Program-made: the position numbers and the translations under genes
Notes under the pieces: generated by a model
Seen by the model: the letters and a program-made list of their open reading frames with translations, nothing else
The model's database searches: none
What the model was told of the DNA's origin: nothing
From: Escherichia phage myPSH1131
Reading direction: 5' to 3' (one strand)
Sequence record: MG983840.1
Length of the DNA: 64,000 nt
Part shown: piece after piece, positions 4,021-33,285 of the stretch
How positions within the stretch are numbered: the first letter of the stretch is position 1
Layout: every line of letters begins with the position of its first letter

Positions 4021-4031
4021 CAGTAGACAGT

Positions 4032-4544
4032 GTGACTGTTAGCCCTGCGTCTTTAGCAAGCCTAGAGACAGGGGCTACTCGGCAGTTCACTGCAAGCGCG
4101 GAGAAAAGTGATGGTTCTACCGAAACAACTGGCTTTACTTGGTCAGTGACAGGAGGTGGTTCTATCACTCAGTCGGGTTTGTATACTGCCCCGAGTGCGT
4201 CTCAATCCACTGATGTATCCATTACTGCAACTTTAGAAGGTGTTTCTGGTACAGCAACCATTTCTGAAATTGTTGCTCCTACTCCTACTATTGTGAGTCG
4301 TGGGCCAATTACAGGTAAAGTAGGTGGTACTACCACTAACTTCAACACCATGTTTACTGTAACTAATTCTATTGCTGATGATTACACACTTGTTGTAACT
4401 CCCGCAGAAGCTGGTACAATAAGCGCTAATAATTCGTTAAAATTAGATGCTGCTGCAAGTGGCGAAGTTACTGTTCAAGCAAGTTTGACAGCTGACCCGT
4501 CCATCAATGCAACATGCACTTTTACTGGTGTAACACCTGCTTAA
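4032..4544 (+). CDS. Ig-like (Big_2-type) domain ORF in the -1 frame of the capsid gene; probable frameshift extension
   Basis: T/S/G-rich Ig-like sequence (TWSVTGGGSITQSGLYTAP). The -1 frame is open from 3942 across the capsid stop, and a GGGAAAG heptamer sits at 4002-4008. Confidence 0.5.
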   Translation: MTVSPASLASLETGATRQFTASAEKSDGSTETTGFTWSVTGGGSITQSGLYTAPSASQSTDVSITATLEGVSGTATISEIVAPTPTIVSRGPITGKVGGTTTNFNTMFTVTNSIADDYTLVVTPAEAGTISANNSLKLDAAASGEVTVQASLTADPSINATCTFTGVTPA

Positions 4545-4646: not shown

Positions 4647-5399
4647 ATGGCGATGCCAGATGTGGCCTATCCGATTAACACGTATGGCTGGCTTAAGAAA
4701 GCTGTTGCCTTGTGGGCCGATCGGGACGATGACGAATTTGTTAATCAAATTCCAAACTTTATTAACTTTGCAGAGAAAGAGGTTTATCGTAACTTACGTA
4801 TTCCTCCTCTGGAAAAAGAAGTGTATTTAGATATTAAAGATGGAGTGGCTTATATTCCTCCTGATTACTTAGAAGCTCAATGGATGATGAGAGCCAAAGA
4901 TGGTACAATCTTCCAAGTAACATCTCCTGAGGAGATAAGCTATCGGAGACAGCACGGGGCTATTAACTCTTCACATTGGAATAACCAACCTGTTAATTTT
5001 GCACGGTTTGGAGCACGTTTCTTATTCTATCCTAGAATAAATGCAGATGTTCCGCATTACCCTGATGATGGTAGTCCGATTGTTCCAGCGGAGAGTTCGG
5101 TAATCTTGAGTTATTATGCAGATCCTCCAGAATTTCACGAAGATGGTGATACAAGTGCGATTCTTACCATTGCACCAGAGCTTCTTTTATATTTTACTCT
5201 GAGGCATGCATGTTTATTTGTTCAAGATGATAATGGGGTTCAAAAGTGGTCTGCTTTAGGTAAGGCTATTCTTGACGAGCTAGTAGAACAGAATAAGAAA
5301 CAAGAGTACTCAGGTTCACCTATTGCAATTCCGAATAACATGACTCGACTTCAGAGCAGCCTGCCTGATATTTATGGTATTCGTACTTCTCGTCTATAA
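4647..5399 (+). CDS. structural protein, possibly adaptor or tail tubular protein
   Basis: 250 aa ORF with SD AAGGAGGA, first gene after the capsid terminator and promoter. Function is a positional guess. Confidence 0.35.
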   Translation: MAMPDVAYPINTYGWLKKAVALWADRDDDEFVNQIPNFINFAEKEVYRNLRIPPLEKEVYLDIKDGVAYIPPDYLEAQWMMRAKDGTIFQVTSPEEISYRRQHGAINSSHWNNQPVNFARFGARFLFYPRINADVPHYPDDGSPIVPAESSVILSYYADPPEFHEDGDTSAILTIAPELLLYFTLRHACLFVQDDNGVQKWSALGKAILDELVEQNKKQEYSGSPIAIPNNMTRLQSSLPDIYGIRTSRL

Positions 5400-5408
5400 G
5401 GAGATAAT

Positions 5409-8400
5409 ATGATCGTTTATAACAACCAAGCACCTAAGAATGTTAACAATGTAGGACAATTTGGAGCTACTGAGGGAACTATTGGTGCTTATAAATCAGC
5501 AGCTGAATATGCAGCAGACTCTAAATATTGGGCATTGTTGTCCCAAACTAAATACTCCTCAGTAGAGGAGATTTTGGCTGAAGTAGAACGTCTGTATGCT
5601 CAAGGTCATCTACTGGAAGAAGACATTAAACAACTCAAGAGTGACTTTGAGTCACAAGAACAAGTGCTCTTAGGTTTGATTCAATCCACAGGAACTGCAA
5701 TTGACAACACCAATGCAGCAACTGAGCTTTCAAAAGAGGCAACTCAAAACGTTCTAGCACAACTTGACATTATCTCTAACATGACAGTTCAAACAACGCT
5801 TCTTCCTCCGGGAAGCCTAGCTACGGGGTCTTATGATAATGCAACAGGTGTCTTTGCTTTTGGTATTCCAGAAGGTAAACCGGGGCGTGATGGTACTGAC
5901 GGAACAATCGGTGATATTGGAAGCGTTCCTGTTGGTACCCCTGTTGTTGATGACTATGGTTTCTATGTAGATAAAGATGATGGTGGTTTATACCGAGCTG
6001 ACATGTCAGATATTGCCAACTTGATTCCATCTGTTCGATCTGTTTCAATCAATGGCGGCGCTGAACAAACAGGTTCAGTGGTTTTTGATTCTGTCTCCAC
6101 ATTCAATGGACGTAAGGGTGCTGTAGTTCCTGCTACTGGAGACTACACAGCTGCTCAAGTGGGAGCTTTTAGTGTAACTAATAACCTATCCGAAATAACC
6201 GACACAAGTGCAGCTATTACAAATATTGGACTCGCTGAGCATGGGATTGGTAGCCCTACCTTAACCAAAGTGAAGGCTATGGACTGGCAAACATTTAATT
6301 TTGTCAATGGAGGTAACTATTCAGTATTAATGTCGAATATTACAAATGCCCCTGCTGAGATAAATTATCCTGCCAATTATGGGTTATATCTTGAAGTCAT
6401 TGGCGTAGTTACAGGAGGAGGTGAGGTACGAGTGGTGCCAGGGACAAACAATAATAACTACTACTCAGTTTTCTCTGTAAGCTGGACTGGAGGAGTTGGT
6501 TCCCGAGTATTTACAGTACGAGAAGAGCTGTCTTCCGCTCGCCCTGTGACTATCTCTCAGGGTGGCACAGGGGCAACTACTGCAAGTGCTGCACGTACTA
6601 AACTTGGTTTAGGTTTGGTTTCCACTGAATCAATTGTACCTATTACCAAAGGTGGTACAGGAGCTACTTCATCAGAGAATGCTCGACTAGCTCTAGTTGC
6701 AGCTAAGAGTGGTGATAACTCTGATATCACCTCGATGACCAACAAGGTTACTTTCACACAATCTCCAGTAATTCCTGATGCTGTAGATGATAATGACGCG
6801 GTTGCTTTGAGACAGTTGCATACAAGTGAAGCAGATTTGCTGGCAAGGCTGAAAAGTAGTAATGCAGGTGAAGGTGCATCCCTTATTACCTTTGAAAATG
6901 GTAATTCTGTTGAGAGTCTTTCCAGTAAAGATGGGGCTAAAAACATTGGCAGTGGTGAGAGAAGTTTGCTTGTCCGTAACAACGACATTAAGCATTCAGG
7001 AGATTTCCCTACCTTACAAGCTGCGGTAAATGCATCGTTACCAAAAAACGACTTAATTGTTTCCCCCGGTGAATACAGTGAAGCGATTACTATTGGTAGT
7101 ACACAGTTAAAGGGTGTTGGTGGAGCCACGGTACTGAAAGCTCCGTCAAACTTTACAGACACTATTCAGGTTAAGGCATCTACGCCTCATTGGCAATTCC
7201 GCCATAGTGGTGGTTTTGCTATAGATGGTTCTGGGACAACCGGGGCTGTAGGTATTAGTTTTGACCCGACCGACCAATATGCTGGTCGTCACAACTTTAG
7301 TGACGTATACATCCATAACATTAACAAGGCCATTCAGAAACCTTCCGGGAATATAGGTAATACATGGAAAGGCATTGGCGTGCAAGGTTGTGACTGGGGT
7401 TACTGGGCACAGTCTGCTTCTGAGATGCACTTAGGCTCTGACACCCTTCAGAACATGCACTTTGATGGTATTAGCACTTACTGTGTTTACTTGAACGCTA
7501 CAACAGGAGAAGCGCCTGGTACATTCGGAGGTGGTGTAGGCGGCTGGTGGATTAAAGATAGTATTATGGAAGCCTCTGGCGGTGGTGGTATTTACCTCAA
7601 GAACAAGGATGGTGACTGCCCTACTGCCCCATGTGGTGTATCCAATGTATGGATGGAAGCTATCGCTACTACTCCAGCTATTAATGTAGATGGTGTATCT
7701 CAGAAGCCTCGTGTCCTTAAACTTATTGATACCAGTATCTTCTTTGCAGAGTACACATACCTTAATAACGTAGAGCTTCAGAACTCCAACCTTGTTACTT
7801 ATGGCTGCCGAGTAGATAATTCAGATGGCCACATGGATATCTCTGTAGATGCCAACAGCAGTTTTGTGGCTGATCAATTGTACCTGAATGGTAGCTCCGG
7901 CAAAGATGTAATGGTACGTTCTGTAGCGGCTCAGACAGGCAAGATTGGGCAAAGCTGGTCACCTAATATGAGTATGCGTGGATACCTGCCGGAAGGATAC
8001 ATCTATCGTGTACCTGGTAATAAGCTGGTAGCTAAACCCTTCGATGGAGGTACTGCTGAATTTAGTGGTACGGCAAGCAGCACTGGGAGTTTGCAGCCAC
8101 AAGGCCAGTTATCTCAGAGCTGCATGTACTTCGAAATCCCTGGTGCTGCTGAGTATGAGCTTACTGGTGCTGCATTTCAGATAACTTCCGGTAACTGGTA
8201 TGTATGGGGCATTAGCACTGAACTGGTACAGGGAACCCCTACAAACTTCCGCATCGGTGGAGATATCAATGTAGGTGAAGTATTTACTAAGGGGGGCCAG
8301 TGGGTGAGTACCTTTGGTGTAGCTCAGGCTAGTGCTTCCGGTTCAGTGAACCTGCGCCTAAGTACAGCCGGTACAGGCGGAGTAGTCCTACGCCTCGCTG

Positions 8401-14243: not shown

Positions 14244-15275
14244 ATGGCATATGGAATATGGACACAACCAGTAGGGCCGGGGCCAGCAACCCCCGCTCCC
14301 TTGTTTATTGATAGCGGAAGTACTTTCCCTCAGTTCAAGAATAGTATAAGAGGGAGCTTTAACTTTAATGGAGCTGGGAGATCTTTCCCTATTAGTGGAT
14401 GGGATGGCAGTGGTCAGATAGTTATTGTTCCTACCGGTTCTTTATGCTGGCAATGGGAAGTCCCTCCTAACCTAGTTCCTGATGTTTATTGTGTGAATAA
14501 TATCTATGTAGAAAACAACTCCTCTTTTAGAGTTACTCTGAATCAGAACCCCGGTAGTAATCCACTATTCGATTGTGGGTTCAACGTATATCAAATATGG
14601 CCTAGAGCGGATAGGAATTATGGAATTACCTTTTCTAATACAGCAGACTACTTCTCAATATCTGACAGTGGGGTCGTCGGTCAATGTATTTGGGCTTGGC
14701 AGGGGACCATAAACAATGCCCTTCAGATACCAAATATCGGTGGGTTCAATATGACCAATGCTGTTGTGTTTGCTAATTGGTCTGATGGAGGGGTAGGACT
14801 ATCTTATACCTCTGATGACAGGGTTATTCGCGTCTATCAGAACAGACCCTATGTCAACGGAAACACTAATGAAGGAGGGTCTGTCTTTGCGAGGGTTGCC
14901 GTATTCTGTAACGGAGCTGGTGTTCCTGAGCATAATGGAGGTTTGAATATTTACTCTCCGGGTACCACACAATGTGTCTTCTCTACTAACAGAACACCTT
15001 TCACTGTGGATACTTTTATAGGATCAGGAGGTGGTAACACGGGAATGTCATACCCCATGATACCTCTTACCTCTGGGATAGGTGCAATAAAAGGCCGAGG
15101 CAGTGGATGGAGATATCAGCAAATGAGATCTCACACAATGAGTGGTTCTACGATAGGAACTGGCTATGGAAGGTATTTGTTTCAGTGGGATCAAAATTAC
15201 GACCTAGGAGCTGATACTGTAGTTAATTTATCAGTCCCTGTAATAAATGCAGCTAAGGTTTTTGCTGGACTATAA
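14244..15275 (+). CDS. structural protein
   Basis: 343 aa ORF, Gly/Asn-rich, tightly packed in the structural block. Confidence 0.3.
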   Translation: MAYGIWTQPVGPGPATPAPLFIDSGSTFPQFKNSIRGSFNFNGAGRSFPISGWDGSGQIVIVPTGSLCWQWEVPPNLVPDVYCVNNIYVENNSSFRVTLNQNPGSNPLFDCGFNVYQIWPRADRNYGITFSNTADYFSISDSGVVGQCIWAWQGTINNALQIPNIGGFNMTNAVVFANWSDGGVGLSYTSDDRVIRVYQNRPYVNGNTNEGGSVFARVAVFCNGAGVPEHNGGLNIYSPGTTQCVFSTNRTPFTVDTFIGSGGGNTGMSYPMIPLTSGIGAIKGRGSGWRYQQMRSHTMSGSTIGTGYGRYLFQWDQNYDLGADTVVNLSVPVINAAKVFAGL

Positions 15276-15287
15276 CAAGGAGATATT

Positions 15288-16070
15288 ATGGCAATTAAAA
15301 TGGGTATTGAAGAACTAGACCCAATGGTTCAACAGGCTTCAAAGAAGTATGGGATTCCTGCTGCTTTGATTCATGCTGTAATCCAAAGAGAGTCTAGTGG
15401 TCGTCCTACAGTAGCTTCTGGAACTGGTCCTGTAGGTTTAATGCAAATCAGTAAAGGGTTGGCTAAAGACTACGGATATAAATTGGAAGATAGATTGGAC
15501 CCAGCAAAGAATATTGATATGGGTGCTCGGTATATCAGAGACAACCTAAAAGCTTTTAACGGTGACGTCAAGAAAGCAATGGTTGGTTATTCAGAAGGTA
15601 TCGGCGGAGCTAAGCAAATGTTCGCTGGTAAAAGAGGGTTTACTCCACAGGCTCTTGATTCAATGAACAATAAACACTTTCTTCCTTTCTATGGTGATGC
15701 AGCTTCTCAGATTGCTAACCCTATTGGAGCTTTGCAAGCTGTTCAACCAGTTAACCAGTTTAGTCCGGATACTCTTGATAGAGAGAAGGCTGCTCAAGCT
15801 CCGACTCAGGCAGAAATTGCTGCTTCTAAGACTGGTGCTTTAGGCGGCAATCCAGTAGAGTTTTACTCTGATGAAGCACAGGAAGGAGAAGATCAGAAGC
15901 CTCAACAGAACTTTGGTAATGCAGTATTAGGAGTAGCTGCTATGCTTGCTGGTAAACCTCCTACTTCTCAAACAGTTCAGAGGGCAAGTGCACCACATGC
16001 AGCAGGTTCTCAGTACAGTCCACAAACACAAGCAGTGCTCAGACGTTTGGCTAGCATTGGTGTGAAGTAA
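15288..16070 (+). CDS. virion-associated lytic transglycosylase (SLT domain)
   Basis: SLT signature ESSGRPTVASGTGPVGLMQI. Confidence 0.6.
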   Translation: MAIKMGIEELDPMVQQASKKYGIPAALIHAVIQRESSGRPTVASGTGPVGLMQISKGLAKDYGYKLEDRLDPAKNIDMGARYIRDNLKAFNGDVKKAMVGYSEGIGGAKQMFAGKRGFTPQALDSMNNKHFLPFYGDAASQIANPIGALQAVQPVNQFSPDTLDREKAAQAPTQAEIAASKTGALGGNPVEFYSDEAQEGEDQKPQQNFGNAVLGVAAMLAGKPPTSQTVQRASAPHAAGSQYSPQTQAVLRRLASIGVK

Positions 16071-16089
16071 TAATCGTTAAGGAGGACTT

Positions 16090-17142
16090 ATGTCTTTATT
16101 TGGAAAATCAGCTTCTAGCAAAACCACAGTGGCTCCTTCCTCTCAGGTTGATGCCCTGCTGAAGCAGATTGTTGCTAATGCTCAGAATATGCAGAACAAC
16201 GATCAGGGTTTTATTTCCCAACAGCTGGCTGGGTTCAATGGCAACCAACAAGGTGCTCTGAATAACTTAGCAGCTTCCACAACTCAAAAACAATTGGCTA
16301 ATATGTACACACCTCGTACACAGCAAGGATTGGACCAACTAAATGCTCTTGCCCAACAGTATCAGAATATTGTTAATAGTGGTGGAGTGACGGCTGAAGG
16401 GGTTAATAACTTTAGTAAAGGTTTGAATAACTCAGCTCTTGCACAAGCTACTAGCAAAGCAGCTTCTAATGTCTCTCTTGGTAATGGCTCTGACTCTGGC
16501 TCTCTCCGTAGGGCTGCGGCTCAAGGGGCTGCTTTGAATGGTGCTAACACTAACCTGTCTCGTACTATCAGTGGCAAGAATATGGGGATCAGTGCTCTTC
16601 AACAAGACCAAAACTTCCAGAGAGGCTTACTTGGTGCTCAGTCAGGGTTAGCTGGACAGAATCTCAATCTTGGTGCTCAAGGTGTTCAGGCAACTCAACA
16701 GGCTATTCAGAATCAGCTCATGGCTGGTAATTTACAACAGCAGCAAGCTCAGGCTCAAGCTGATATCAATTGGCAGAACGCTATTGGCTCTCAGCAGTAT
16801 GGATGGAATCAGCTTAACAACCAGCTTAATGTACTAAACAGTGTAAGTCCAATGGCTGGATACACAATTAAGAATGCTGCTCCGGGAGTTAATGTTGGAC
16901 AGCAGCTCCTAGGTGCTGGTATCACTGGATTAGGTATTGCAGGTCGTATGGGTGCTTTCTCTCCTAATCAACAGACTCAGAATGCTTGGAGTTCCTATAA
17001 CAACTCAGGTGGGCAATCTGGAATGGCTGGTCCTATGATTGGGGGTTCTAATCTTTCTCAACAGAGAGGTCAGTCTAACTGGTTATCCACAGCAGGTAGT
17101 AATATCTTAGGTGGTGTCTTAGGGGCATTTGGAGCAAACTAA
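16090..17142 (+). CDS. internal virion protein A (Q/N/G-rich)
   Basis: 350 aa, begins MSLFG; SD AAGGAGGA. A paralogous second copy is at 23310..24263. Confidence 0.4.
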   Translation: MSLFGKSASSKTTVAPSSQVDALLKQIVANAQNMQNNDQGFISQQLAGFNGNQQGALNNLAASTTQKQLANMYTPRTQQGLDQLNALAQQYQNIVNSGGVTAEGVNNFSKGLNNSALAQATSKAASNVSLGNGSDSGSLRRAAAQGAALNGANTNLSRTISGKNMGISALQQDQNFQRGLLGAQSGLAGQNLNLGAQGVQATQQAIQNQLMAGNLQQQQAQAQADINWQNAIGSQQYGWNQLNNQLNVLNSVSPMAGYTIKNAAPGVNVGQQLLGAGITGLGIAGRMGAFSPNQQTQNAWSSYNNSGGQSGMAGPMIGGSNLSQQRGQSNWLSTAGSNILGGVLGAFGAN

Positions 17143-17154
17143 AGGAGAATATCT

Positions 17155-18123
17155 ATGTCACTTTTTGGTGGAGGCGGAAGTAAAACTACTTCCCAAATGA
17201 TTCGTCCTGAATACATTCAACAGTATATTGACCAGCTTAATAAGCAGATTGGTAATACCAGTTCAGGGGATTATGTTTATCGAGATAATGTAGGGTTTAA
17301 TAATAACCAGACAGAGGCACTTAACAACTTAGCACAATCTGGTGCTCTAGGAACTCTCTCACAGCAGTATATGGATGCAGCAGGTCAAGGGTTAGGGTAT
17401 CTAGATAATGCCTATAAAGGCTATCAGAGCCTCTCTGGACAAGGTGGGATTACTGGAGAACAGATTGGTGCTCTCGCTGGTCAATTATATGATGATGACG
17501 CTGTGCAAGCAGCCATTACAGCTAATAATGAACAAGTTCAACAGAATCTAGCACGTAATGCTCTTCCTCAGTTAGCTCAGCAGTATGCTGGTCAGCAAGG
17601 TTCAGGTGCTCGTATGGCTAAATCTTTTGCCCAAGGTGATGCTCTGAATCAGATGCAAGGGCAAGCAACAGATATTACCAACAGTGCCTATAACTCGGCT
17701 ATTAGTCAAGCTGAAAGCATTCTCTCTGGTAATAGACAGAATCAGGCAGCTGCTCTCTCTGGTCTTTCTACTATTGGTTCTAACCTTTCTAACCTAGGTC
17801 AGCAGGGTGCTAATTTGTCTCAACAGCAAATGATGAATCAATGGAATGCAGGATTGCAGCAACAACAGCAACAACAGAATGAATATGATAATGCCTACCA
17901 GAATGCTCAGAACGCAGCTAATTGGGGATGGCAAGATATCAACAACCAACTCGGTGCAGCAGGTGTACTTAACGGTGCTCTCGGACAAACTACAACCACT
18001 AAAACCTCTGGTGGCAAAGGTGGTTTCCTTGGTGGAGCTATGAGTGGTTCAGCAGCAGGCTCTTCCTTTGGGCCTTGGGGTGCATTAGCTGGGGGTCTAA
18101 TCGGTGGGTTGGCTAGTACTTAA
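17155..18123 (+). CDS. internal virion protein B (Q/N/G-rich, paralog of A)
   Basis: 322 aa, begins MSLFGGGG; a second copy is at 24667..25635. Confidence 0.4.
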   Translation: MSLFGGGGSKTTSQMIRPEYIQQYIDQLNKQIGNTSSGDYVYRDNVGFNNNQTEALNNLAQSGALGTLSQQYMDAAGQGLGYLDNAYKGYQSLSGQGGITGEQIGALAGQLYDDDAVQAAITANNEQVQQNLARNALPQLAQQYAGQQGSGARMAKSFAQGDALNQMQGQATDITNSAYNSAISQAESILSGNRQNQAAALSGLSTIGSNLSNLGQQGANLSQQQMMNQWNAGLQQQQQQQNEYDNAYQNAQNAANWGWQDINNQLGAAGVLNGALGQTTTTKTSGGKGGFLGGAMSGSAAGSSFGPWGALAGGLIGGLAST

Positions 18124-18136
18124 TTAGGAGATAAAT

Positions 18137-19786
18137 ATGCAACAGACAACTTACGCTCAGGTCAGAAGTCGTGACCCGAGAAATACTTTCTATGGTGTTA
18201 ATCCGGGAGCGGCTTCGGCCTCTCCTTATATGGCTAGACCCGTTCAGACAGCAGATATTTCTATGTATCAACGACCTGCTGTACCTGCTGGGTTATCTGC
18301 TCTTGTAGGTCAAACTTCAGTTGATTATCAGAATATGTTGAATCCTGTTCAGAGTAATGGTCTTCCTTCTGACATTCCGAATGATGTACAACCTCAATCA
18401 CAACAGGCTGTAACTCTTCCTGAGTTTGAGAACCAAGAAACCATGCAAGCTGCTGGACTTTCTCCTTCTGCTATTCCTCAAGAATCAGAACCTCTTCCGG
18501 TAACACCTCCTACTAAACCGCTAGAAGCTGGTCCTATGGAGTTTACTCCTTCTCAGGTAGAACAGGCACAAGGTGTGATTAACACTCTTGCTCAAGGACA
18601 AGACACTGGTGATGGAATGGCTGCTGCTACTCGTGCTAAAGATCAAGAGCGTGTTAACAACGATATCTTGCAAGTTGCGAAAGCTAAAGACCCTTCAGAA
18701 GCTTGGAACAAACTACAGAAAGAACCATTCTATCAGAACTCTAGTTTCTATACAGGTTTGATGGGTGTAGGTCTTTCCATTATGTCAGGTAAGTCTCCTA
18801 TTGAAGCTTTCCAGATTGGTCAGGGAATGGCTAATCAGGATGAGACTAAGAAGCAACTGGAAGCTAACCGTGATGCCTTGATTGAACAAGGCTTCTCTCA
18901 AGACTCGATCGCAGCTGCTATTGCTAACGGAGACCCGTCTCTACTGAAGATGAGAGCTGTAGACCCTGCTCAGAAAGAAGCGCTGTATGCTGCTCGTGAA
19001 GAACGACAAAATGCTGAATGGGATAGACGTCAACAGATTCAAGAGCAAACTATGCGTGAGCGTGCTGATGAAACTCGTCGTGCCGCTGAAGAAAGAGCTA
19101 ACATGAACTTTGAACGTCAGAAAGAGTTGATTGGTTATCGTGATAAGGTTAAGGCTGAACGTGCTGAACAAGCTGCTCAGAGTTTTAACTTTAACCCGAA
19201 AGAAGTTCGTCTTGCTCAGAATACAGCTGAAGGTACGGTTGCTAAGCAGTGGGCAGAGAAAGGTGGCCTGTTTAACCAGTCTAACAAAGACTTGGATTTG
19301 GCTGATAAAGCTGTTAAGGATAAAGACTATCAGACAGCTCGTTCTGCTTACATGCAGGCTATCATGAACTCTGCAAGGGCTGAAATCGGTGCTACTCGTT
19401 CTCTTACCGAAGAAGACTTAGGGCACTTTGCAGAAGACCCATCAATCTTCGTTCGTGTTGGCAACAAGTTTGCACTGAAATCTGGATGGCGTCCTACTGA
19501 TTCTGCTCTTGCTTATGCTCGTAAGCAAGCTAACGTTGGTCACACCTCTGCAATGAAAGGTGTTGCTGATGCTAAGAGAGCTACGATTGAAGCTTACATC
19601 GGTTCTGGTATGGATAAGAAGAGAGCTACTGCATTGGTTAACCGTGCAATCCCTTCTGGTGGTTTCTATGACCCTCTAGGTGTTTTCTCTGAACAAGCAG
19701 AAGAAGCAGTTGGTGGTGCAGTAACCAATCCTAAGCTTAATGGTGCTTTATCAGCTGTCGAAGACACTAGCTGGTTCACTCAATAA
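18137..19786 (+). CDS. internal virion protein C
   Basis: 549 aa; a truncated second copy is at 25649..26482. Confidence 0.4.
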   Translation: MQQTTYAQVRSRDPRNTFYGVNPGAASASPYMARPVQTADISMYQRPAVPAGLSALVGQTSVDYQNMLNPVQSNGLPSDIPNDVQPQSQQAVTLPEFENQETMQAAGLSPSAIPQESEPLPVTPPTKPLEAGPMEFTPSQVEQAQGVINTLAQGQDTGDGMAAATRAKDQERVNNDILQVAKAKDPSEAWNKLQKEPFYQNSSFYTGLMGVGLSIMSGKSPIEAFQIGQGMANQDETKKQLEANRDALIEQGFSQDSIAAAIANGDPSLLKMRAVDPAQKEALYAAREERQNAEWDRRQQIQEQTMRERADETRRAAEERANMNFERQKELIGYRDKVKAERAEQAAQSFNFNPKEVRLAQNTAEGTVAKQWAEKGGLFNQSNKDLDLADKAVKDKDYQTARSAYMQAIMNSARAEIGATRSLTEEDLGHFAEDPSIFVRVGNKFALKSGWRPTDSALAYARKQANVGHTSAMKGVADAKRATIEAYIGSGMDKKRATALVNRAIPSGGFYDPLGVFSEQAEEAVGGAVTNPKLNGALSAVEDTSWFTQ

Positions 19787-19806
19787 GACCTAAGTCCTGC
19801 CTTCTA

Positions 19807-19815
19807 TAATGTATA
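19807..19815 (+). promoter_or_regulatory. TAATGTATA promoter motif
   Basis: Exact motif, 39 nt upstream of the ATG at 19854. Confidence 0.5.
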
Positions 19816-19853
19816 TAGGGGGTAGGACATTTTTATTTATAAAAGGAGACGTT

Positions 19854-22800
19854 ATGGCTAACATTAAACCGTGGGAAGAAGCTTCCAAAGCTCCTGCGTA
19901 TCTGAATGCCTCTCCGGAGCAACAAGCTCAAATGAGAGAACAATATAAGGCAGCAGGTGGCTCTATTCCTGAGGAACAACCAGTAGCACAACCACAACAA
20001 GAAGAACGTGGTGCTATAGGTGAGTTTGCTCAAGGTGTGTCAAATGCTCTTCAATCTGGTGGTGCAAATATTGCAGCTAGTGCTGCTAAAGGTATTGGTG
20101 GTTTAGTTGAGATTGGTGAGAATCTAGCTGGAGCACAAACTAGTTATGGTAAGCGTATCCAAGAGAACTCTCAGAATCTTCTGAAAGAACGTATGGATAA
20201 GATTGAGGATGGGATTGGTAAAACTGTCGGTCAGTATGCTGGCGTTGCTGGTGATATCGGTTTGACAGTTGCTAACCCATTGGCTGCTGCTGCTATCATC
20301 GCAGGTCGTGAGACAGGTCGTGCATATGCAGACCAAACCCCTGAAGAGGGAGAAGATAAGTCTATTCTAGATGCAGCCTTAGTTGGTGGTGCTAACTATG
20401 CGGCTCAGAGAATCCTTCCGGGTGCTGTCGGTACAGCTGAGTCCACACTTGGACGTATTGGTCAGAACGTTGCTAGTAACGCAGTGGCTGGTGCTAAAGG
20501 TGGCGCTCTTGTGGGTGCTGCTGAAGCTCAGAACAAGCATGGAGATGATACAACCTTTGCTAATGTATTAGAGGGTGCTATCGAAGAAGGTGCTATGGGT
20601 GCTGCATTCGGTGGTGCAGTTGGTGGAGTTCATGGTTTGATTAGCCGTCCAGATTCTGCTGTCTTCAAGAATACTCCAGAGTATGCGAAGACTGATATTG
20701 CTGCTGATGATGAACTAATTCGTAGTGCTAAGAATATTGATGAACTGAAAGAAGCTTACTCTAAAGCTGAAACTGCTAACGCTGCTTCTGCTCTGAATCT
20801 TCTGGATGAGAATGGATTCCGTATTACAGATGCTGTTGCTGTGGATTCTCCTGCTGCTCAGCGTATTCTTAATACTGACCAAGCTCGTGCTGAGAAAGCT
20901 GCTTCTGTTCAGAAAGAACATTCCAACATTCCGGGCCTTAATCCTTTAGCTTCTCCTGCTAAGACTCGTGGTAAAGCATTTGCTGATAATGAGCACAACC
21001 AGAAGCAGGCTGTTGCTATGAAGGATGCAATGGCTGACTACACCAAAGACAACACGAAAGCTCTTACAGATGTTCTAGATAACCTAGACCGTGAATTAAC
21101 TTCTCTCCGAGCTTCTGGTGATTTTACTGGTAGTCCGATTGATATTAAGAATCGTACACAAGCTGACCGTGATTTCATTGATGCTTACAAGACTTTCTAC
21201 AATGAAGCAAATCGATTCAAAGCTCGTGAAGGTGAAGATTTTAATAACTTTGTAGAGAAAGCTACTGAACTACAGAAGATGGCTGATAATGTTTCTCCAG
21301 AGATGAAGAAAGCTATCGGTGGGTTGAAGAAACTGAAAGGTATGCCTGAAGGTTTTAATCCTATTCAAGATGCTTATACTCTGAACAATACAGCTAAATT
21401 CATGAGCAACCAAGATCGTGGTTGGACTTCCTTGACTGATGATGGATTCCGTGAAGCTTCTTCACCTAGTCTGGTAATGAACACTCTTGGTGCTGCTAAG
21501 TATGCTCTGAATCGCTTCTCTTCTCAGCGTGCTCGTTCTCAACGTGTTAAGCAACAAGAATCTAACAGTGAAGCTATCCGCTCTCTTGCTCGTGGTGATT
21601 TGGAAGTTGCTCGTGCTAAATCTACTGCTGATGAAGCTCGTGCTAAGATGGAAGAAGAACCAGTTGTTGATGACATTAAATTTAAGACGCAAAATGACGT
21701 AGAAACCGAACCGGTTCGGGAGCCTTCTTCTAGTACTGTGACGGAAGAAAATCTTCCTTCTTCTACTCCTCAAGAGACTCCTCTTACAGCTCGTGATTTA
21801 GTTGCGCAAAGACGCGCTATCCGTCAGGCTGAACAGCGTCGCGCTGAAGAAGAGGCATTGGCTGCTCAAGAAGCTCCGGTCGAACAGGCTCCACAGGCTG
21901 AACCTCTCCCTGCTCGTAACCCTCTAGAGGAGCGTCGTGCAATGGAACAGCAACGTGCTCAAGAAGAGGCCGCACAGGCTCCAGAACCTACCGTAGAGGA
22001 ACCAACAGTCAAAGCTGAGCCATTACCTGCCCGTGCTCCTAAAGCTCCTAAGGAAGCTGTACAGGACGTTAAACCGGCAAGTGGTGTAGAACGTTTAGCT
22101 GCTATGTCTAGTGCTGCTCGTCAGGCTACTAAAGATCGTGCAGAACGCTTTGCTCGTTCTCTGTACTCTAAGGCTGCTAAAGCTAAAGCTACTGCTGAAA
22201 ACTTCTTGGCTTATAAAGGTGATCCTAAGGAACTGATGCGTCGTATTCGTCAGGAAGATAATGCTATCAACACTGAACGTCATGAAGAAATGGCTCGTAA
22301 CCAGTTGGCTTCTCAGCAAGGTATTGCTACTGCTAAGAACAACACTGTACGAACTAATTTTGCTGAATGGGTTAAGGAACGTGGTCTGCCAGAAGACATT
22401 GCTACTAAGGCATTACGTGCTGAAGAGAAAGGTTTAGGTGGGAACGTAACTAACTTGGATAGTCTGAAACGTCGTGCTGAAAGGTTGTATCAGAAGCAGC
22501 GTGAAGATGAGTTTGATAGACTGTACCAACAAGCTCTAGAAGAGAATAAAGCTTTCGATAACAAGAATGCTCCTAAGCTGGTTGACCAGAAGAAAGAGCT
22601 TCAGTCTGAGATTGATACTTTGATTGATGCAGAACCTTTACGTCCTGCTCAGAAAGACGCTATGCGTAAATTGATGAATGACTTTGTAGATGGAAAGTTT
22701 AAATCTTCAGAGAAGGCTGGTAGGGAAGAGGCTTTGGAAGTTGGTCAGATGAAGGATATTTGGGATGGGTTTATTAACACCTATAACAGAGAAGTGAATG

Positions 22801-23201
22801 CCTTCAACAAAGCTAACAAGAACTCTCAGTACGAAGCTGCTGCTAAGCATTTACAGGCTCGTGAAGAACGTCTTGCTACACTCAGGAAAAAGGCTCAGGC
22901 TCGTTCGGATGCTAAAGCTGCTGTTGAGAATGAACGTAAAACTCTAGAGGCTATTGCAGCTCAGAAGAGTGAGATTGAGAAGATGATGGAAGGTTTACCT
23001 AAACCTGTTCGTGAGGCTCAGGAATCTCGTACACTGAAACAGTTGGCTGCTCACCACGATAAGAACTCTCCAGTTCCTCCAGAGAAGTTCCGTAGTTACA
23101 TTGAACGTATCCATAACGCCGAGTCAGACTACCTTGATCGTCAGCGTCGTTTAACTGATGCAGAGGAAGATGCTCGTCAGGCTAAGTGGAACAAGATGTA
23201 G
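19854..23201 (+). CDS. large internal virion / ejection protein (about 1115 aa)
   Basis: Start moved to the ATG preceded by SD AAAGGAGA; the track start at 19809 overlaps the promoter. Ala/Glu-rich with coiled-coil regions. Confidence 0.45.
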   Translation: MANIKPWEEASKAPAYLNASPEQQAQMREQYKAAGGSIPEEQPVAQPQQEERGAIGEFAQGVSNALQSGGANIAASAAKGIGGLVEIGENLAGAQTSYGKRIQENSQNLLKERMDKIEDGIGKTVGQYAGVAGDIGLTVANPLAAAAIIAGRETGRAYADQTPEEGEDKSILDAALVGGANYAAQRILPGAVGTAESTLGRIGQNVASNAVAGAKGGALVGAAEAQNKHGDDTTFANVLEGAIEEGAMGAAFGGAVGGVHGLISRPDSAVFKNTPEYAKTDIAADDELIRSAKNIDELKEAYSKAETANAASALNLLDENGFRITDAVAVDSPAAQRILNTDQARAEKAASVQKEHSNIPGLNPLASPAKTRGKAFADNEHNQKQAVAMKDAMADYTKDNTKALTDVLDNLDRELTSLRASGDFTGSPIDIKNRTQADRDFIDAYKTFYNEANRFKAREGEDFNNFVEKATELQKMADNVSPEMKKAIGGLKKLKGMPEGFNPIQDAYTLNNTAKFMSNQDRGWTSLTDDGFREASSPSLVMNTLGAAKYALNRFSSQRARSQRVKQQESNSEAIRSLARGDLEVARAKSTADEARAKMEEEPVVDDIKFKTQNDVETEPVREPSSSTVTEENLPSSTPQETPLTARDLVAQRRAIRQAEQRRAEEEALAAQEAPVEQAPQAEPLPARNPLEERRAMEQQRAQEEAAQAPEPTVEEPTVKAEPLPARAPKAPKEAVQDVKPASGVERLAAMSSAARQATKDRAERFARSLYSKAAKAKATAENFLAYKGDPKELMRRIRQEDNAINTERHEEMARNQLASQQGIATAKNNTVRTNFAEWVKERGLPEDIATKALRAEEKGLGGNVTNLDSLKRRAERLYQKQREDEFDRLYQQALEENKAFDNKNAPKLVDQKKELQSEIDTLIDAEPLRPAQKDAMRKLMNDFVDGKFKSSEKAGREEALEVGQMKDIWDGFINTYNREVNAFNKANKNSQYEAAAKHLQAREERLATLRKKAQARSDAKAAVENERKTLEAIAAQKSEIEKMMEGLPKPVREAQESRTLKQLAAHHDKNSPVPPEKFRSYIERIHNAESDYLDRQRRLTDAEEDARQAKWNKM

Positions 23202-23309
23202 TAGAGAAAGACTAGCTTAAAAGAGGAACCTCATGAGGAATAAGAACGAAGATTGTAAGTATAGTTCAAACCGAGGTCATAATATAATAGATTTCATAAG
23301 TATTAGAAT

Positions 23310-24263
23310 ATGCAGAACAACGATCCGGGATTCATCTCCCAACAGCTGGCTGGGTTTAATGGCAACCAACAAGGTGCTCTGAACAACTTAGCAGCTTCTA
23401 CTACTCAGAAGCAATTGGCTGATATGTACACACCTCGTACACAGCAAGGGTTGGACCAATTAAATTCTCTTGCACAGCAGTATCAGAATATTGTCAATGG
23501 TGGTGGTCTAACTGCTGATGGTGTTAATAACTTTAGTAAAGGATTGAATAACTCAGCTCTTGCTCAAGCGACTAGTAAGGCAGCTTCCAATGTATCCCTC
23601 GGAAATGGTTCTGATTCAGGCTCTCTCCGTAGAGCTGCTGCTCAAGGTGCTGCTCTGAACAGTGCTAATACAAACTTAGCTCGTACTATCAGTGGCAAGA
23701 ATATGGGAATCAGTGCTCTTCAACAAGACCAAAACTTCCAGAGGGGCTTACTTGGTGCTCAGTCAGGATTGGCTGGACAGAATCTCAATCTTGGTGCTCA
23801 AGGTGTTCAGGCAACTCAACAAGCTATCCAGAATCAACTCATGGCTGGTAATCTACAACAGCAACAAGCCCAAGCTCAAGCTGATATTAATTGGCAGAAC
23901 GCTATTGGCTCTCAACAGTATGGGTGGAATCAGCTTAACAACCAACTTAATGTATTAAATAGTGTAAGCCCAATGGCTGGGTACACGATTAAGAATGCTG
24001 CTCCGGGGGTTAATACTGGACAACAGCTCCTAGGTGCTGGTATCACTGGATTAGGTATTGCAGGTCGTATGGGTGCTTTCTCTCCTAATCAACAGACTCA
24101 GAATGCTTGGAGTTCCTATAACAACTCAGGTGGGCAATCTGGAATGGCTGGTCCTATGATTGGTGGTTCTAATCTTTCTCAACAGAAAGGTCAGTCTAAC
24201 TGGTTATCCACAGCAGGTAGTAATATCTTAGGTGGTGTCTTAGGGGCATTTGGAGCAAACTAA
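23310..24263 (+). pseudogene. second copy of protein A lacking the first ~34 codons
   Basis: About 93% aa identity to A from residue 35 onward; no SD, and unrelated sequence upstream. Confidence 0.5.
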
Positions 24264-24275
24264 AGGAGATTTGAT

Positions 24276-24665
24276 ATGAGTATGGAGTCTAAAGGATATA
24301 AAGACCCTGCCAAATACGAAGCTTATCTTGAAAGACAGAGAGATTATAAGAGACGTAAAAGGGTCGAGGGTGACCCTTGGTATGATCCTGAAAAAGTGAG
24401 AGCTAAGAATCTCCAAAAGATGTATGGGATATCTCATGAAGAATATGAGAAAATGTGGGAAGAACAAGAAGGGCTTTGCAAGATCTGTGGTAATCCAGAG
24501 AGTGTTAAACTTAAAGGTGTGGTTAAGCTACTAGCTGTAGATCATTGTCATTTATCTGGCAAGGTTCGTGGTCTTCTTTGTAATAACTGCAACAGAGCGA
24601 TAGGTATGCTTAAGGATGACCCTGAGATACTTCGTCGTGCTGCTAGCTATTTAGAGGAGATATAA
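24276..24665 (+). CDS. HNH homing endonuclease (free-standing)
   Basis: HNH motif DHCHLSGKVRGLLCNNCN. It lies between the A and B paralogs, which are directly adjacent in the first copy. Confidence 0.75.
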   Translation: MSMESKGYKDPAKYEAYLERQRDYKRRKRVEGDPWYDPEKVRAKNLQKMYGISHEEYEKMWEEQEGLCKICGNPESVKLKGVVKLLAVDHCHLSGKVRGLLCNNCNRAIGMLKDDPEILRRAASYLEEI

Positions 24666-24666
24666 T

Positions 24667-25635
24667 ATGTCGCTTTTCGGAGGCGGGGGTAGTAAAACTA
24701 CTTCCCAAATGATTCGCCCTGAATACATTCAACAGTATATTGACCAGCTTAACCAACAGATTGGTAATACTAGTTCAGGGGATTATGTTTATCGGGACAA
24801 CGTAGGATTTAATAATAACCAAACAGAGGCACTTAATAACTTAGCACAATCTGGCGCTTTAGGCACTCTCTCACAGCAATACATGGATGCAGCAGGTCAA
24901 GGGTTAGGTTATCTGGATAATGCCTATAAAGGCTATCAGAGCCTCTCTGGACAAGGTGGGATTACTGGAGAACAGATTGGTGCTCTCGCTGGTCAACTGT
25001 ATGATGATGACGCTGTGCAAGCAGCCATTACAGCTAATAATGAACAGGTTCAACAGAACTTGGCACGTAATGCTCTTCCTCAGTTGGCTCAACAGTTTGC
25101 CGGTCAACAAGGTTCAGGTGCTCGTATGGCTAAGTCTTTTGCCCAAGGTGATGCTCTGAATCAGATGCAAGGGCAAGCAACAGATATTACCAATAGTGCA
25201 TATAACTCGGCTATCAGCCAAGCTGAAAGCATCCTCTCTGGTAATAGACAGAATCAGGCAGCTGCTCTCTCTGGTCTTTCTAATATTGGTTCTAACCTTT
25301 CTAACCTAGGTCAGCAGGGTGCTAATTTGTCTCAACAGCAAATAATGAATCAATGGAATGCAGGGTTGCAGCAACAACAGCAACAACAGAATGAATATGA
25401 TAATGCCTACCAGAATGCTCAGAACGCAGCTAATTGGGGATGGCAAGATATCAATAACCAACTCGGTGCAGCAGGTGTACTTAACGGTGCTCTCGGACAA
25501 ACTACAACTACTAAAACATCTGGTGGCAAAGGTGGTTTCCTTGGTGGAGCTATGAGTGGTGCAGCAGCTGGCTCTTCCTTTGGACCTTGGGGTGCATTAG
25601 CTGGGGGTGTAATCGGTGGGTTGGCTAGTACTTAA
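24667..25635 (+). CDS. second copy of protein B
   Basis: 322 aa, about 97% aa identity to B; SD GAGGAGA. Confidence 0.4.
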   Translation: MSLFGGGGSKTTSQMIRPEYIQQYIDQLNQQIGNTSSGDYVYRDNVGFNNNQTEALNNLAQSGALGTLSQQYMDAAGQGLGYLDNAYKGYQSLSGQGGITGEQIGALAGQLYDDDAVQAAITANNEQVQQNLARNALPQLAQQFAGQQGSGARMAKSFAQGDALNQMQGQATDITNSAYNSAISQAESILSGNRQNQAAALSGLSNIGSNLSNLGQQGANLSQQQIMNQWNAGLQQQQQQQNEYDNAYQNAQNAANWGWQDINNQLGAAGVLNGALGQTTTTKTSGGKGGFLGGAMSGAAAGSSFGPWGALAGGVIGGLAST

Positions 25636-25648
25636 TTAGGAGATAAAT

Positions 25649-26482
25649 ATGCAACAGACAACTTACGCTCAGGTCAGAAGTCGTGACCCGAGAAATACTT
25701 TCTATGGTGTTAATCCGGGAGCGGCTTCGGCCTCTCCTTATATGGCTAGACCAACTCAGACAGCAGATATTTCTATGTATCAACGTCCTGCTATACCTGC
25801 TGGGCTTTCCTCTCTTATAGGTCAAACTTCAGTAGATTATCAGAATATGTTGAATCCTGTTCAGAGTAATGGTCTTCCTTCTGATATCCCAAATGATGTA
25901 CAACCTCAAGCACAACAGGCTGTAACTCTTCCTGAGTTTGAGAATCAAGAAACCATGCAAGCTGCTGGACTTTCCCCTTCTTCTATTCCTCCAGAATCAG
26001 AACCTCTTCCGGTAACACCTCCTACTAAACCGTTAGAAGCTGGTCCTATGGAGTTTACTCCTTCTCAGGTGGAACAGGCACAAGGTGTGATTAATACTCT
26101 TGCTCAAGGACAAGATACTGGTGATGGAATGGCTGCTGCCACTCGTGCTAAAGATCAGGAACGTGTTAACAACGATATATTGCAAGTTGCGAAAGCTAAA
26201 GACCCTTCGGAAGCTTGGAACAAACTACAGAAAGAACCATTCTACCAAAACTCCAGTTTCTACACAGGTTTGATGGGTGTAGGTCTTTCCATTATGTCAG
26301 GTAAGTCTCCTATTGAAGCTTTCCAGATTGGTCAGGGAATGGCTAATCAAGATGAGACTAAGAAGCAACTGGAAGCTAACCGTGCGTCATACATCCCAAT
26401 TCTCTTCAGAAGTCTGGATGTTCATCTTCAAAGCATCCTGAGATGCCTCCATAGAACCAATCCGATTTACTTCCAAGGATAA
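25649..26482 (+). pseudogene. second copy of protein C, 3'-truncated at a junction
   Basis: Matches C for about 245 aa, then diverges after LEANR at about 26385 into unrelated sequence. Confidence 0.5.
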
Positions 26483-26676
26483 CAACTTCTTCATTCATAT
26501 ACCCTCCTAGATTGTGTTTATAAAATTAGTAAGTTTCTCTTCACTTTCATCAAAAGCTTTTCCAGCTGCTTCCATCTCCCAAGTATCGGCATTGTCAATA
26601 AAGCTCTGAGCTTCTAATAGGTCGTGGATTAAGTCGAAGAGTTTATTTTTATCTGCTTGTGTGATCATGTCAGTTC

Positions 26677-26904
26677 CTAGATTAAATCGTAATACTGAAT
26701 AATGTCAGAGAGTTTGAACTCTCGAATCTCATCTTTCTCTACATCTATCGCTGTCATAATCCAACAAGGTTTGCCACCGTTATGAAAACGGGAGCTAGCA
26801 ACGGAGGTTCGGAGTGGAATAACGGACCGGTCAGCAACCTCGCCTCTCCAATTGCGATAGCGAAAGCGAAGCACTTGTTGCGTAGATTTTTGATCATCAC
26901 TCAT
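26677..26904 (-). CDS. hypothetical protein
   Basis: Track ORF trimmed to an internal ATG so it no longer overlaps the HNH gene; contains FRYRNWRGEV. Confidence 0.25.
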   Translation of the reverse strand: MSDDQKSTQQVLRFRYRNWRGEVADRSVIPLRTSVASSRFHNGGKPCWIMTAIDVEKDEIREFKLSDIIQYYDLI

Positions 26905-27298
26905 TTCCTTTTTTGAATTGTTTTCTTGCATCATTCTCTTCTTTTGTTTTAATCTTATGACAAGGGTCTTTACACAGAACCTGAAAACCTTCTTTCTCAC
27001 ACAGAGCACGAGAGATGATCTCATCCCAAGTGGCTTCATGGTCAAGAGGAACTATAGGCTCTATGTGGTCAATAGCCATATCCTTTACAGGGTGGTCAGA
27101 ACCACACATGGCACACTTAAAGTGCATTGCCAGTCTACCTGTCTTTGGATTAATCTTCTGCTCTGTCTTGGCGTCTGCTAGTGCATCGAACATGGGCTTC
27201 CACTTTCTAGTCAGAGAACGAATCCCTGACTTGATAAAAGAATTGTAACGAGCTTCAGTCCACATTCCAGAGCATCTAGTCTTCTCAGCCTTCGCCAT
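26897..27298 (-). CDS. HNH endonuclease
   Basis: CAMCGSDHPVKDMAIDHIEPI ... LCKDPCHKIK HNH signature. Confidence 0.7.
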   Translation of the reverse strand: MAKAEKTRCSGMWTEARYNSFIKSGIRSLTRKWKPMFDALADAKTEQKINPKTGRLAMHFKCAMCGSDHPVKDMAIDHIEPIVPLDHEATWDEIISRALCEKEGFQVLCKDPCHKIKTKEENDARKQFKKGNE

Positions 27299-27476
27299 AA
27301 CCTACACTCATATCATCTTCTTCCCATACACGTTTATCTACTCGGTGTGATACTTTTTCACGTTTTTCTTTAATATAGCGGTTGCCTAATTCGTGGCTAT
27401 ATTTAATACGCTGCTCTTTACGAGATTCACGGTTGGAGGAGTTTTCATCATATGAACGATAATCAAATTTACCCAT
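27285..27476 (-). CDS. small basic hypothetical protein
   Basis: 63 aa ORF; the same sequence recurs at about 33110-33290. Confidence 0.25.
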   Translation of the reverse strand: MGKFDYRSYDENSSNRESRKEQRIKYSHELGNRYIKEKREKVSHRVDKRVWEEDDMSVGYGEG

Positions 27477-27489
27477 TATAATATCCTTA

Positions 27490-28332
27490 TTACCAAGATT
27501 TATCTAACCATGTCCAGTCGAACAGGTCTTCCGGAGTCTGACCAACAAAGAGCAGCCGAGCATTCTCAAGCATCTTCTCTTCATCTTCAGTATCGAACTT
27601 CTTATAATATTCCATTCGTACTATATGATACATGGTCCATCTATCTGTAACACCAGCCAACAGACTAGCTGCTGCTTTCTTCCCTATTCCTTGACGTCGA
27701 AGCTGAAGCTTACCACCCCACATAACCTCTTTACGTTCCCCACATCCGGGGATGTTATCCGTACCATCTCCAATCAACATTTGATAGAAGAAGTTTTGCC
27801 ATGAAACTAAATCAGATACGTAATGAGGAGGGACTTCTTTCTGTCTTTCTCCACAAGCCCAGCGATAATGCCATCCGGGAGTTATCAACAAATCCTTGTC
27901 TCTAGTACAGATGATAGTATTCTTATCCCTACGTTGCCTTTCAGCTAGTGCATCATCAGCCTCTCTCCCAAAGACCTCAATGTATTCGTACTTGGCTTTA
28001 ATGTAATCACCAACGTTTTGCCAGTGAAAAGGTCTTTCTCCGGGAGGTCTGTTTGCCTTGTAGTCTTGTTGCTTAGCAACATCGAAACGGAAGTTACCGC
28101 CTTCGCTGAAGTAGAATACAACCTTACTACAACCCGAGCGAGCTATAATTGTATCAATCTTGTACTGAAGTCGTTCAATCATGAAATTGTAATCAACTGG
28201 AACACGTCCTGTGTCAAGGAAGGGATGCTCCTGAGTAAGAGCACCCACTTCATACCGAAGAACGTCAGCGTCCACTATAGCAACTTCAGGGAGCTTAACT
28301 TCTTCCATAAATATCATCCTGAGCTTGAGCAA
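27490..28332 (-). CDS. 5'-3' exonuclease / flap endonuclease (FEN family)
   Basis: GDGTDNIPGCG and the helix-3-turn-helix GIGKKAAASLLAG; acidic PIN-like N-terminal region. Confidence 0.7.
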   Translation of the reverse strand: MLKLRMIFMEEVKLPEVAIVDADVLRYEVGALTQEHPFLDTGRVPVDYNFMIERLQYKIDTIIARSGCSKVVFYFSEGGNFRFDVAKQQDYKANRPPGERPFHWQNVGDYIKAKYEYIEVFGREADDALAERQRRDKNTIICTRDKDLLITPGWHYRWACGERQKEVPPHYVSDLVSWQNFFYQMLIGDGTDNIPGCGERKEVMWGGKLQLRRQGIGKKAAASLLAGVTDRWTMYHIVRMEYYKKFDTEDEEKMLENARLLFVGQTPEDLFDWTWLDKSW

Positions 28333-32722: not shown

Positions 32723-33106
32723 TTAGATAGTTAATTTGTGATCTTCCTCCGCTCTGTTTCTAACAGAGACGGCTTCTTCTAGGGTTGAGAAAGTTCCTAG
32801 GTATTTAGTTTTACCTTTACAGAGAAGCTTGACTTTATTTAATCGAGCACTCCGTTGTAAGAGTTCGACTAAGGAGTGATAAAAGAAAAGCCCTCGAGGA
32901 GAAATCCAAGAGGGTTTATCACACTTAAAGTGCATTGCCAATCTTCCTGTCTTTGGATTAATCTTCTGCTCTGTCTTGGCGTCTGCTAGTGCATCGAACA
33001 TGGGCTTCCACTTTCTAGTCAGAGAACGAATCCCTGACTTGATGAAAGAGTTGTAACGAGCTTCAGTCCACATTCCACTACAGCGAGTCTTCTCAGACTT
33101 CGCCAT
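32723..33106 (-). pseudogene. HNH N-terminal region joined to an AP2-like C-terminus (hybrid, HNH catalytic motif lost)
   Basis: First ~62 aa match the HNH at 26897..27298; then a junction to YLGTFSTLEEAVSVRNRAEED (AP2-like). Confidence 0.4.
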
Positions 33107-33285
33107 AATCAGCTTCTTCCCAAACTCGTTTGTTTACACGATGGCTTACTTTGCCCTCACGAGGAATACGACCAGTTCTCTGATCAAACAGTTGATGTTT
33201 AATCTTTTGGTCTTTACGAGATTCACGATTGGAGGAGTTTTCATCATATGAACGATAATCAAATTTACCCATTATAATATCCTTA

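Follow-up and report, generated by a model that had tools for sequence, protein, structure and literature searches.

A free-standing Endonuclease VII/DHHRN-type gene, probably a homing endonuclease gene, between two DNA-ejection protein genes of phiEco32-like phages

Introduction

The free-standing homing endonucleases of phage T4 are known for intronless homing and marker exclusion (PMC2988022). Among them, SegF, SegG, and MobE are encoded by intergenic ORFs that are present or absent between close relatives and presumably spread via double-strand-break repair in mixed infection; they belong to the GIY-YIG or classical HNH families, usually have promoters of their own, and have been demonstrated in experiments to cleave and to cause co-conversion (PMC2988022). 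F-CphI (ORF177 of cyanophage S-PM2), a protein of 142 aa in which an N-terminal extension is combined with a C-terminal CX2C...DHxH...R...CX2CN domain, has been shown to be a homing endonuclease, and the DHHRN family was defined from it (Fang et al. 2018, PMC6083498). This family is split into an "endonuclease clade" with a C-terminal motif and a "resolvase clade" with an N-terminal motif, and in its Endonuclease VII group the H-N-H motif is without its central Asn (PMC6083498). The F-CphI gene is free-standing and adjoins its presumed target gene; the enzyme cuts intron-less psbA and is paired with a group I intron, an arrangement termed collaborative homing.

T4 endonuclease VII (gp49) is a structure-specific Holliday-junction resolvase that is essential for packaging, and its catalytic beta-beta-alpha-metal core with a zinc site carries the motif N-terminally, with a dimerisation domain after it. 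Hpy99I, a type II restriction enzyme of bacterial origin, is accompanied by a methylase. The closest analogues in genomic context are the gp13.5 Endonuclease VII-like ORFs of T7-like phages (phiYeO3-12, EcoDS1, Kayfunavirus, and Klebsiella Przondovirus), which are small, sporadic, free-standing ORFs between the internal-virion or ejection genes 13 and 14 and, to our knowledge, uncharacterised. Their position between these genes indicates that the Endonuclease VII-type family recurs in ejection-protein clusters of podoviruses unrelated to one another.

Here we describe a gene from a stretch of 64,000 nucleotides of Escherichia phage myPSH1131 (record MG983840.1; hereafter the window), which is likely a free-standing homing-type Endonuclease VII/DHHRN gene of phiEco32-like phages. 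Its 129-aa product resembles F-CphI in having an N-terminal extension and the same C-terminal domain, and the gene likewise adjoins its presumed target gene; however, no intron accompanies it, its neighbours are podovirus DNA-ejection genes, and it is fused into the translation signals of their operon. As in the case of SegF, SegG, and MobE, the ORF is intergenic and is present or absent between close relatives. The protein shares the catalytic core and zinc site of gp49, but has the opposite domain order and is dispensable in related phages, and, unlike in the case of Hpy99I, no methylase gene adjoins it. The gp13.5 ORFs are 43-59% identical to it, although they occur in another phage family and between other flanking genes.

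Results

Filled and empty junctions

The endonuclease ORF reads intact from its ATG at 24276 to its TAA at 24663-24665, and lies in the second of two copies of a gene segment within the window (Table 1). Genes A and B of this segment are tandem paralogues (16090-18123), both Q/N/G-rich and both starting with M-S-L-F-G. In the first copy, A and B are 12 nt apart; in the second, the interval of 403 nt consists of the resident 12 nt, the 390-nt ORF, and one base, so that the element amounts to 391 nt in all. Alignment of the two junctions gave the same net insert of 391 nt with no other indels. The carrier loci L005-L009 share this insert with the window; MN03, EcK-vB, phiEc_1, ES17, and others lack it, with identical boundaries. 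The empty site is best represented by MN03, EcK-vB, and phiEc_1, whose flanks are 98-100% identical to the second copy and closer to it than the first copy is.

Table 1. Coordinates of the endonuclease locus, its surroundings, and homologues elsewhere (positions in the window unless another phage or contig is named)
Feature	Position	Strand	Remarks
Gene A, copy 1	16090-17142	+	350 aa; PHROG 4287 'DNA ejection protein'
Uninterrupted A/B junction, copy 1	17143..17154	+	ES17-type allele, AGGAGAATATCT
Gene B, copy 1	17155-18123	+	322 aa; PHROG 4287, paralogue of A
Gene C, copy 1	18137-19786		549 aa
Gene D	19809-23201		truncated to 1130 aa; stop created at 23199-23201
Filler	23201..23304	.	104 nt between truncated D and A'
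A'	23310..24263	+	5'-truncated by 33 codons; start is internal Met34 of the 350-aa protein
Resident intergenic 12 nt	24264..24275	+	AGGAGATTTGAT, containing SD; same in endonuclease-less phages
Endonuclease gene	24276..24665	+	free-standing; 129 aa; Endonuclease VII/DHHRN type
Replacement translation-initiation region for B	24654..24666	+	SD GAGGAGA (24654-24660), TAA 24663-24665, 1-nt spacer
B'	24667..25635	+	322 aa; PHROG 4287 DNA-ejection protein
C'	25649..26384	+	3'-truncated; past 26384 the ORF continues in unrelated backbone to 26482
Endonuclease homologue of PAS59 (L002, OQ921332)	3959-4408		149 aa; 46-52% identical; annotated 'hypothetical protein'
Salmonella-associated homologue P0005 (L018-L020: Salmonella enterica assemblies, Logan contig)	5001-5384		63% identical
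gp13.5 of phiYeO3-12 (NC_001271)	26649-27071
gp13.5 of EcoDS1	26012-26263

The empty junction of the three comparators reads …GCAAACTAA AGGAGATTTGAT ATG GGA CTTTTCGGAGGCGGGGG… (the MN03 type including …GCAAACTAAAGGAGATTTGATATGGGACTTTTCGGAGGCGGGGGTAG…), and the filled junction of the window reads …GCAAACTAA AGGAGATTTGAT ATG AGT ATG GAG … TAT TTA GAG GAG ATA TAA T ATG TCG CTTTTCGGAGGCGGGGG…. The 15 nt made up of AGGAGATTTGAT and the ATG at 24276-24278 are thus the same as those preceding codon 2 of B in MN03, EcK-vB, and phiEc_1, and to judge from this identity they are gene B's former SD and start codon, now serving the endonuclease gene. A new SD, GAGGAGA, is located within the final codons of the endonuclease gene (YLEEI*), and the ATG of B follows after 1 nt. 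In all eight carrier lineages compared, an SD lies in the codons ...YLE-x-x-stop, followed by 1 nt or an overlap and then by the ATG of B. No promoter or terminator of the endonuclease gene's own was found, signal counts being at or below chance, and its GC content is 40% vs 45% in the flanks.

An earlier note on this DNA had described a gap of 12 nt between A and B in the first copy and the ORF as filling it in the second, and had asked for an alignment of the two junctions; the coordinates proved correct, and the alignment bears out a precise insertion whose boundaries are identical among endonuclease-less phages. Its claim that the insert recreates an SD for B also holds, whereas the insert does not bring an SD of its own, as the note had it, but takes over that of B together with the ATG. 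Nor is the first copy a suitable empty site: it carries the ES17-type allele, its identity to the second-copy flanks is no more than 92-95%, and it is set in a mosaic; the actual counterparts are MN03 and EcK-vB.

Family assignment of the protein

The sole Pfam family returned for the protein was PF02945 (Endonuclease_7; E 6.1e-26, 90.6 bits vs a cut-off of 23.6), and the PHROG families matched were named endonuclease VII (E down to 4.9e-34), with one weak match to an HNH-named PHROG (E 1e-3). F-CphI is 39% identical over residues 29-127 (E 1e-23). The catalytic domain comprises approximately residues 45-127 of 129, and the N-terminal ~45 aa are basic and helical. The DHHRN motif, defined as CX2-4C ... 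D-H-x-H ... R ... CX2C-N with C23, C26, D40, H41, H43, R54, C58, C61, and N62 of T4 Endonuclease VII as reference, is complete: no catalytic or zinc residue is missing, all of them lying in the C-terminal part of the protein, and C68, C71, D89, H90, H92, R98, C102, C105, and N106 do not vary across an alignment of 11 sequences. Judged by its motif position and by its similarity to F-CphI rather than to T4 Endonuclease VII, the protein could be assigned to the DHHRN endonuclease clade.

Alignment with T4 Endonuclease VII covers only residues 9-70 of the 157 of that enzyme, and its C-terminal part has no counterpart here; the differing domain architecture, together with the absence of the gene from nearly all relatives, argues against a gp49-type resolvase. 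Among solved structures, Hpy99I is the best sequence match for the C-terminal domain (E 2.5e-6). The confident AlphaFold model (pLDDT 86) has T4 Endonuclease VII and HNH domains as top fold matches, with weak Foldseek E-values (best 5e-3), so that these matches serve as corroboration. The protein had initially been labelled HNH in the earlier note; this label is right at the level of the beta-beta-alpha-metal fold superfamily, which is the only common ground, but not as a family, since there is no Pfam HNH match and the protein is of the Endonuclease VII/DHHRN type.

Distribution and divergence of the gene

The window region 15000-27500 had matches in 98 phage records, almost all of Escherichia phages, the best being ES17 (98.5%). 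The A/B junction could be found in all 98 Kuravirus records; PAS59 is the only record with an interrupted junction among the 60 listed out of these 98, and tblastn with either endonuclease protein returned no further Kuravirus carriers, which leaves 97 of the 98 uninterrupted. In three relatives from IMG/VR the junction is empty as well, and MN03 and EcK-vB lack the gene between flanks 99-100% identical to the second copy. Alleles without the endonuclease gene, on which the case for a mobile element depends, therefore do exist, and the gene is far from being present in all relatives. PAS59 is also the only isolate with a filled junction among the phage-collection matches listed, and its gene is one of a longer subfamily, common to L021 and L022, which has the N-terminal extension MEEYSESTI….

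The filled A/B allele is natural, given that an endonuclease 98% identical to that of the window (P0001) separates full-length A and B genes in at least five independent contigs from five samples; one of these, a genome-length contig of 74.9 kb from a metagenomic Kuravirus, has the normal single-copy gene order. The database search suggested in the earlier note thus yielded homologues in PAS59, metagenomic contigs, and T7-like phages (gp13.5), with patchy presence. Neither the chimeric C' ORF nor the exact protein encoded by the window's endonuclease gene occurred in the public assemblies in which they were looked up, and the literature searched contained no paper connecting Kuravirus with endonuclease VII.

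At the nucleotide level, the endonuclease gene is 96-99.5% identical among carriers, and their flanks are 88-95% identical. Among the carriers L005, L008, and L009, dS is 0.03-0.04 for the endonuclease gene vs 0.17-0.33 for A and B, the gene differing at 2-3 of 387 sites; in these terms the gene shows itself to be much younger at its site than its flanks. Its dN/dS of 0.07-0.10 indicates that the function of the endonuclease is maintained. In its closest relatives (L010, L025, and L011), the endonuclease is 66-76% identical to that of the window at the amino acid level vs 43-53% for A/B, and in the longer subfamily (L021 and PAS59) 52-59% vs 78-83%. The endonuclease gene tree is in conflict with the gene B tree, and two endonuclease subfamilies occupy the same A/B site within one E. 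coli Kuravirus clade. Mismatch profiles of the flanks contain no clear carrier-specific co-conversion tract, with L005 vs L009 alone hinting at an extension into B, and part of the sharp drop in divergence inside the gene might be due to flank-shuffling recombination rather than to endonuclease-driven transfer.

The motif ATGnnnCTTTTyGGnGGnGG at the first codons of B occurs in the window only at the two B starts, with 0 occurrences expected by chance, and is kept downstream of every endonuclease homologue examined. The Salmonella-associated homologue P0005, which was considered as a possible marker of a different insertion site, is located in an SU10-portal-type phage region, with a scaffold-like gene upstream and the next ORF 2 nt downstream. 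That ORF starts with V-GLFGG (GTGGGCCTTTTTGGTGG), which is B's 5' motif, and otherwise could not be aligned to B (E 88). At this position, the B-like motif may have been conserved as a recognition sequence, or else it may be a gene start that was transferred along with the endonuclease gene.

Mosaic structure of the window

The window consists of phiEco32-like podovirus sequence (Kuravirus, Gordonclarkvirinae). Comparison with the whole ES17 genome revealed a 99.9%-identical backbone interrupted by deletions and foreign blocks, with landmarks at 1193-2995, about 3431, 23200, and 27000-64000. The portal gene is frameshifted and its ORF shortened to 600 aa, and ES17 6297-8099, covering the scaffold gene and the 5' part (two thirds) of the major capsid gene, is missing from the window. 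Identity with the ES17 backbone ends at 23200, where the stop truncates D (ES17 gp025 is a gene of 4422 nt); the second copy replaces the last 1.1 kb of D, and the backbone resumes after 26384 at 99.7%. The duplicated parts are 92.3% (16184-17148 vs 23305-24269) and 94.9% (17140-18872 vs 24652-26384) identical. While the junction region of the first copy is 100% identical to ES17 and myPSH2311, the second copy is overall 98.4% identical to MN03 vs 94% to ES17, with 100% identity to MN03 over the last 355 nt of A' and in the B' protein. The filler preceding A' had no match in phage records or in viral, metagenome, or genome collections. From 23 kb on, there are at least 10 direct diverged (88-96%) repeats of nearby segments, often spaced by ~100-nt fillers, some of which match other Kuraviruses (80-98%).

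The shortened portal, the missing scaffold gene and 5' capsid part, the truncated D, and the diverged blocks indicate that the window is not a viable genome. By these comparisons it is probably chimeric, combining several co-occurring Kuravirus strains that include an MN03-like carrier of the endonuclease gene. A filled and an empty junction would occur in one window because it is a mosaic of strains, so that the "empty site" within it would belong to another strain and not to a paralogous locus. The junctions have a microhomology of only 3-4 nt, which makes a de Bruijn mis-join a doubtful cause of the mosaic. PH444, a 115-kb Kuravirus-like record flagged as unverified, is only 95% identical.

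Elsewhere in the window, another small endonuclease gene is located at 26897-27298 on the minus strand, in the early/middle region; it corresponds to ES17 gp028, annotated as HNH endonuclease, and is part of a diverged duplication with a repeat near 32920-33108. Two further genes of ES17, gp062 and gp071, are annotated as HNH. Positions 60392-60467 and 60468-60543 form a perfect 76-nt tandem duplication (100% identity), which is not a tRNA; no tRNAs were found in the window.

Discussion

Comparison of genomes supports the central claim of the earlier note, that a free-standing, intron-less, homing-type gene has been placed precisely between two virion protein genes, here those for DNA ejection. 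The pattern of presence and absence, the contrast in dS, the conflict between gene trees, and the maintenance of the gene fit better with repeated site-specific invasion than with vertical descent and loss. In the proposed course of events, the endonuclease gene would be expressed from the late structural operon via B's former SD and ATG, and in a mixed infection the enzyme would cut the allele that lacks the gene, at the A/B junction or close to it, upon which recombinational repair off the carrier genome would copy the gene in ("intronless homing"). The new SD in its last codons should allow B still to be translated by tight coupling. The conserved 5' end of B (ATGnnnCTTTTyGGnGG...) is the most plausible candidate for the recognition sequence. 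Nevertheless, the B-proximal junction of carriers, AGGAGATATAAT ATG TCG CTTTTCGG..., still resembles the empty AGGAGATTTGAT ATG GGA CTTTTCGG..., a likeness that would seem to leave carriers open to self-cleavage and counts against the homing reading.

It seems unlikely that the gene has instead been at the A/B junction since ancient times, passed on vertically and made patchy by loss and ordinary homologous recombination. Such a history would agree with the occurrence of homologues at this junction even in lineages in which A and B share only 43-65% identity, as well as with the lack of a detected co-conversion tract, but not with a gene tree in conflict with that of B, with a gene dS 6-10 times below that of adjacent genes in the same contigs, or with two subfamilies inside one E. 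coli Kuravirus clade; furthermore, the empty sites are the exact 12-nt junction and bear no deletion scar. Equally improbable is that the protein serves the phage as an accessory enzyme, be it a resolvase or debranching nuclease like T4 gp49, an HNH partner in packaging, or a nuclease directed against competitors or host DNA. Its catalytic motif is indeed shared with T4 Endonuclease VII, and the gene is under purifying selection and is embedded in, and translationally coupled to, a late operon, as an enzyme useful to the phage might be. The absence of the gene from at least 97 of 98 sequenced relatives, near-identical ones included, speaks against such a role, as do the missing C-terminal dimerisation part of Endonuclease VII and the C-terminal-motif architecture, which is that of the endonuclease clade and not of the resolvase clade; the gene also does not adjoin the terminase genes.

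Two further possibilities take the mosaic at face value. Filled and empty junctions might coexist in one replicating genome, with A'-endonuclease-B'-C' as a genuine segmental duplication and the first copy as an in-genome empty site. All repeated blocks are direct and near their homologous position, and the junctions do not contain the long shared k-mers expected of a de Bruijn-graph mis-join, both of which would suit a real duplication. This is nonetheless very unlikely for a sequence with a frameshifted portal gene, no scaffold gene, two thirds of the capsid gene missing, and a truncated D, in which the copies differ by 5-8%, the second is nearer to other strains, and at least 10 further such blocks occur with ~100-nt fillers between them, several matching other Kuraviruses; moreover, an active endonuclease beside its own uncut target would be unstable, and the chimeric ORFs are not in public assemblies. 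Just as doubtful is the notion that the mosaic is a real molecule in which aberrant repair of an endonuclease-made break put a donor A'-endonuclease-B'-C' ectopically into an ES17-like genome. If that were true, the diverged direct repeats would be a record of segmental duplication between strains in co-infection, driven by the endonuclease or by recombination, a process similar to the amplification by SegB that has been reported for T6 (PMC13096335).

With repeated homing-type invasion as the preferred reading, the window endonuclease is a well-documented natural DHHRN (Endonuclease VII-motif) example, which is ordinary and unsurprising to specialists, lends itself to experiment, and changes no concept. 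Since the window sequence is chimeric, "paralogues" within it should not be taken as biology. The DHHRN homing endonuclease family is small, with one characterised member, and the window gene adds a natural example to it. The comparative evidence is unusually clean, comprising an exact empty site in near-identical phages, two subfamilies competing for one site, and a candidate target. The "SD hand-over" would let a 391-nt element sit in an essential late operon without polar effects. Given that Kuraviruses such as ES17 and myPSH2311 figure in phage therapy, a mobile nuclease that could convert or exclude co-infecting relatives may be relevant to cocktail design.
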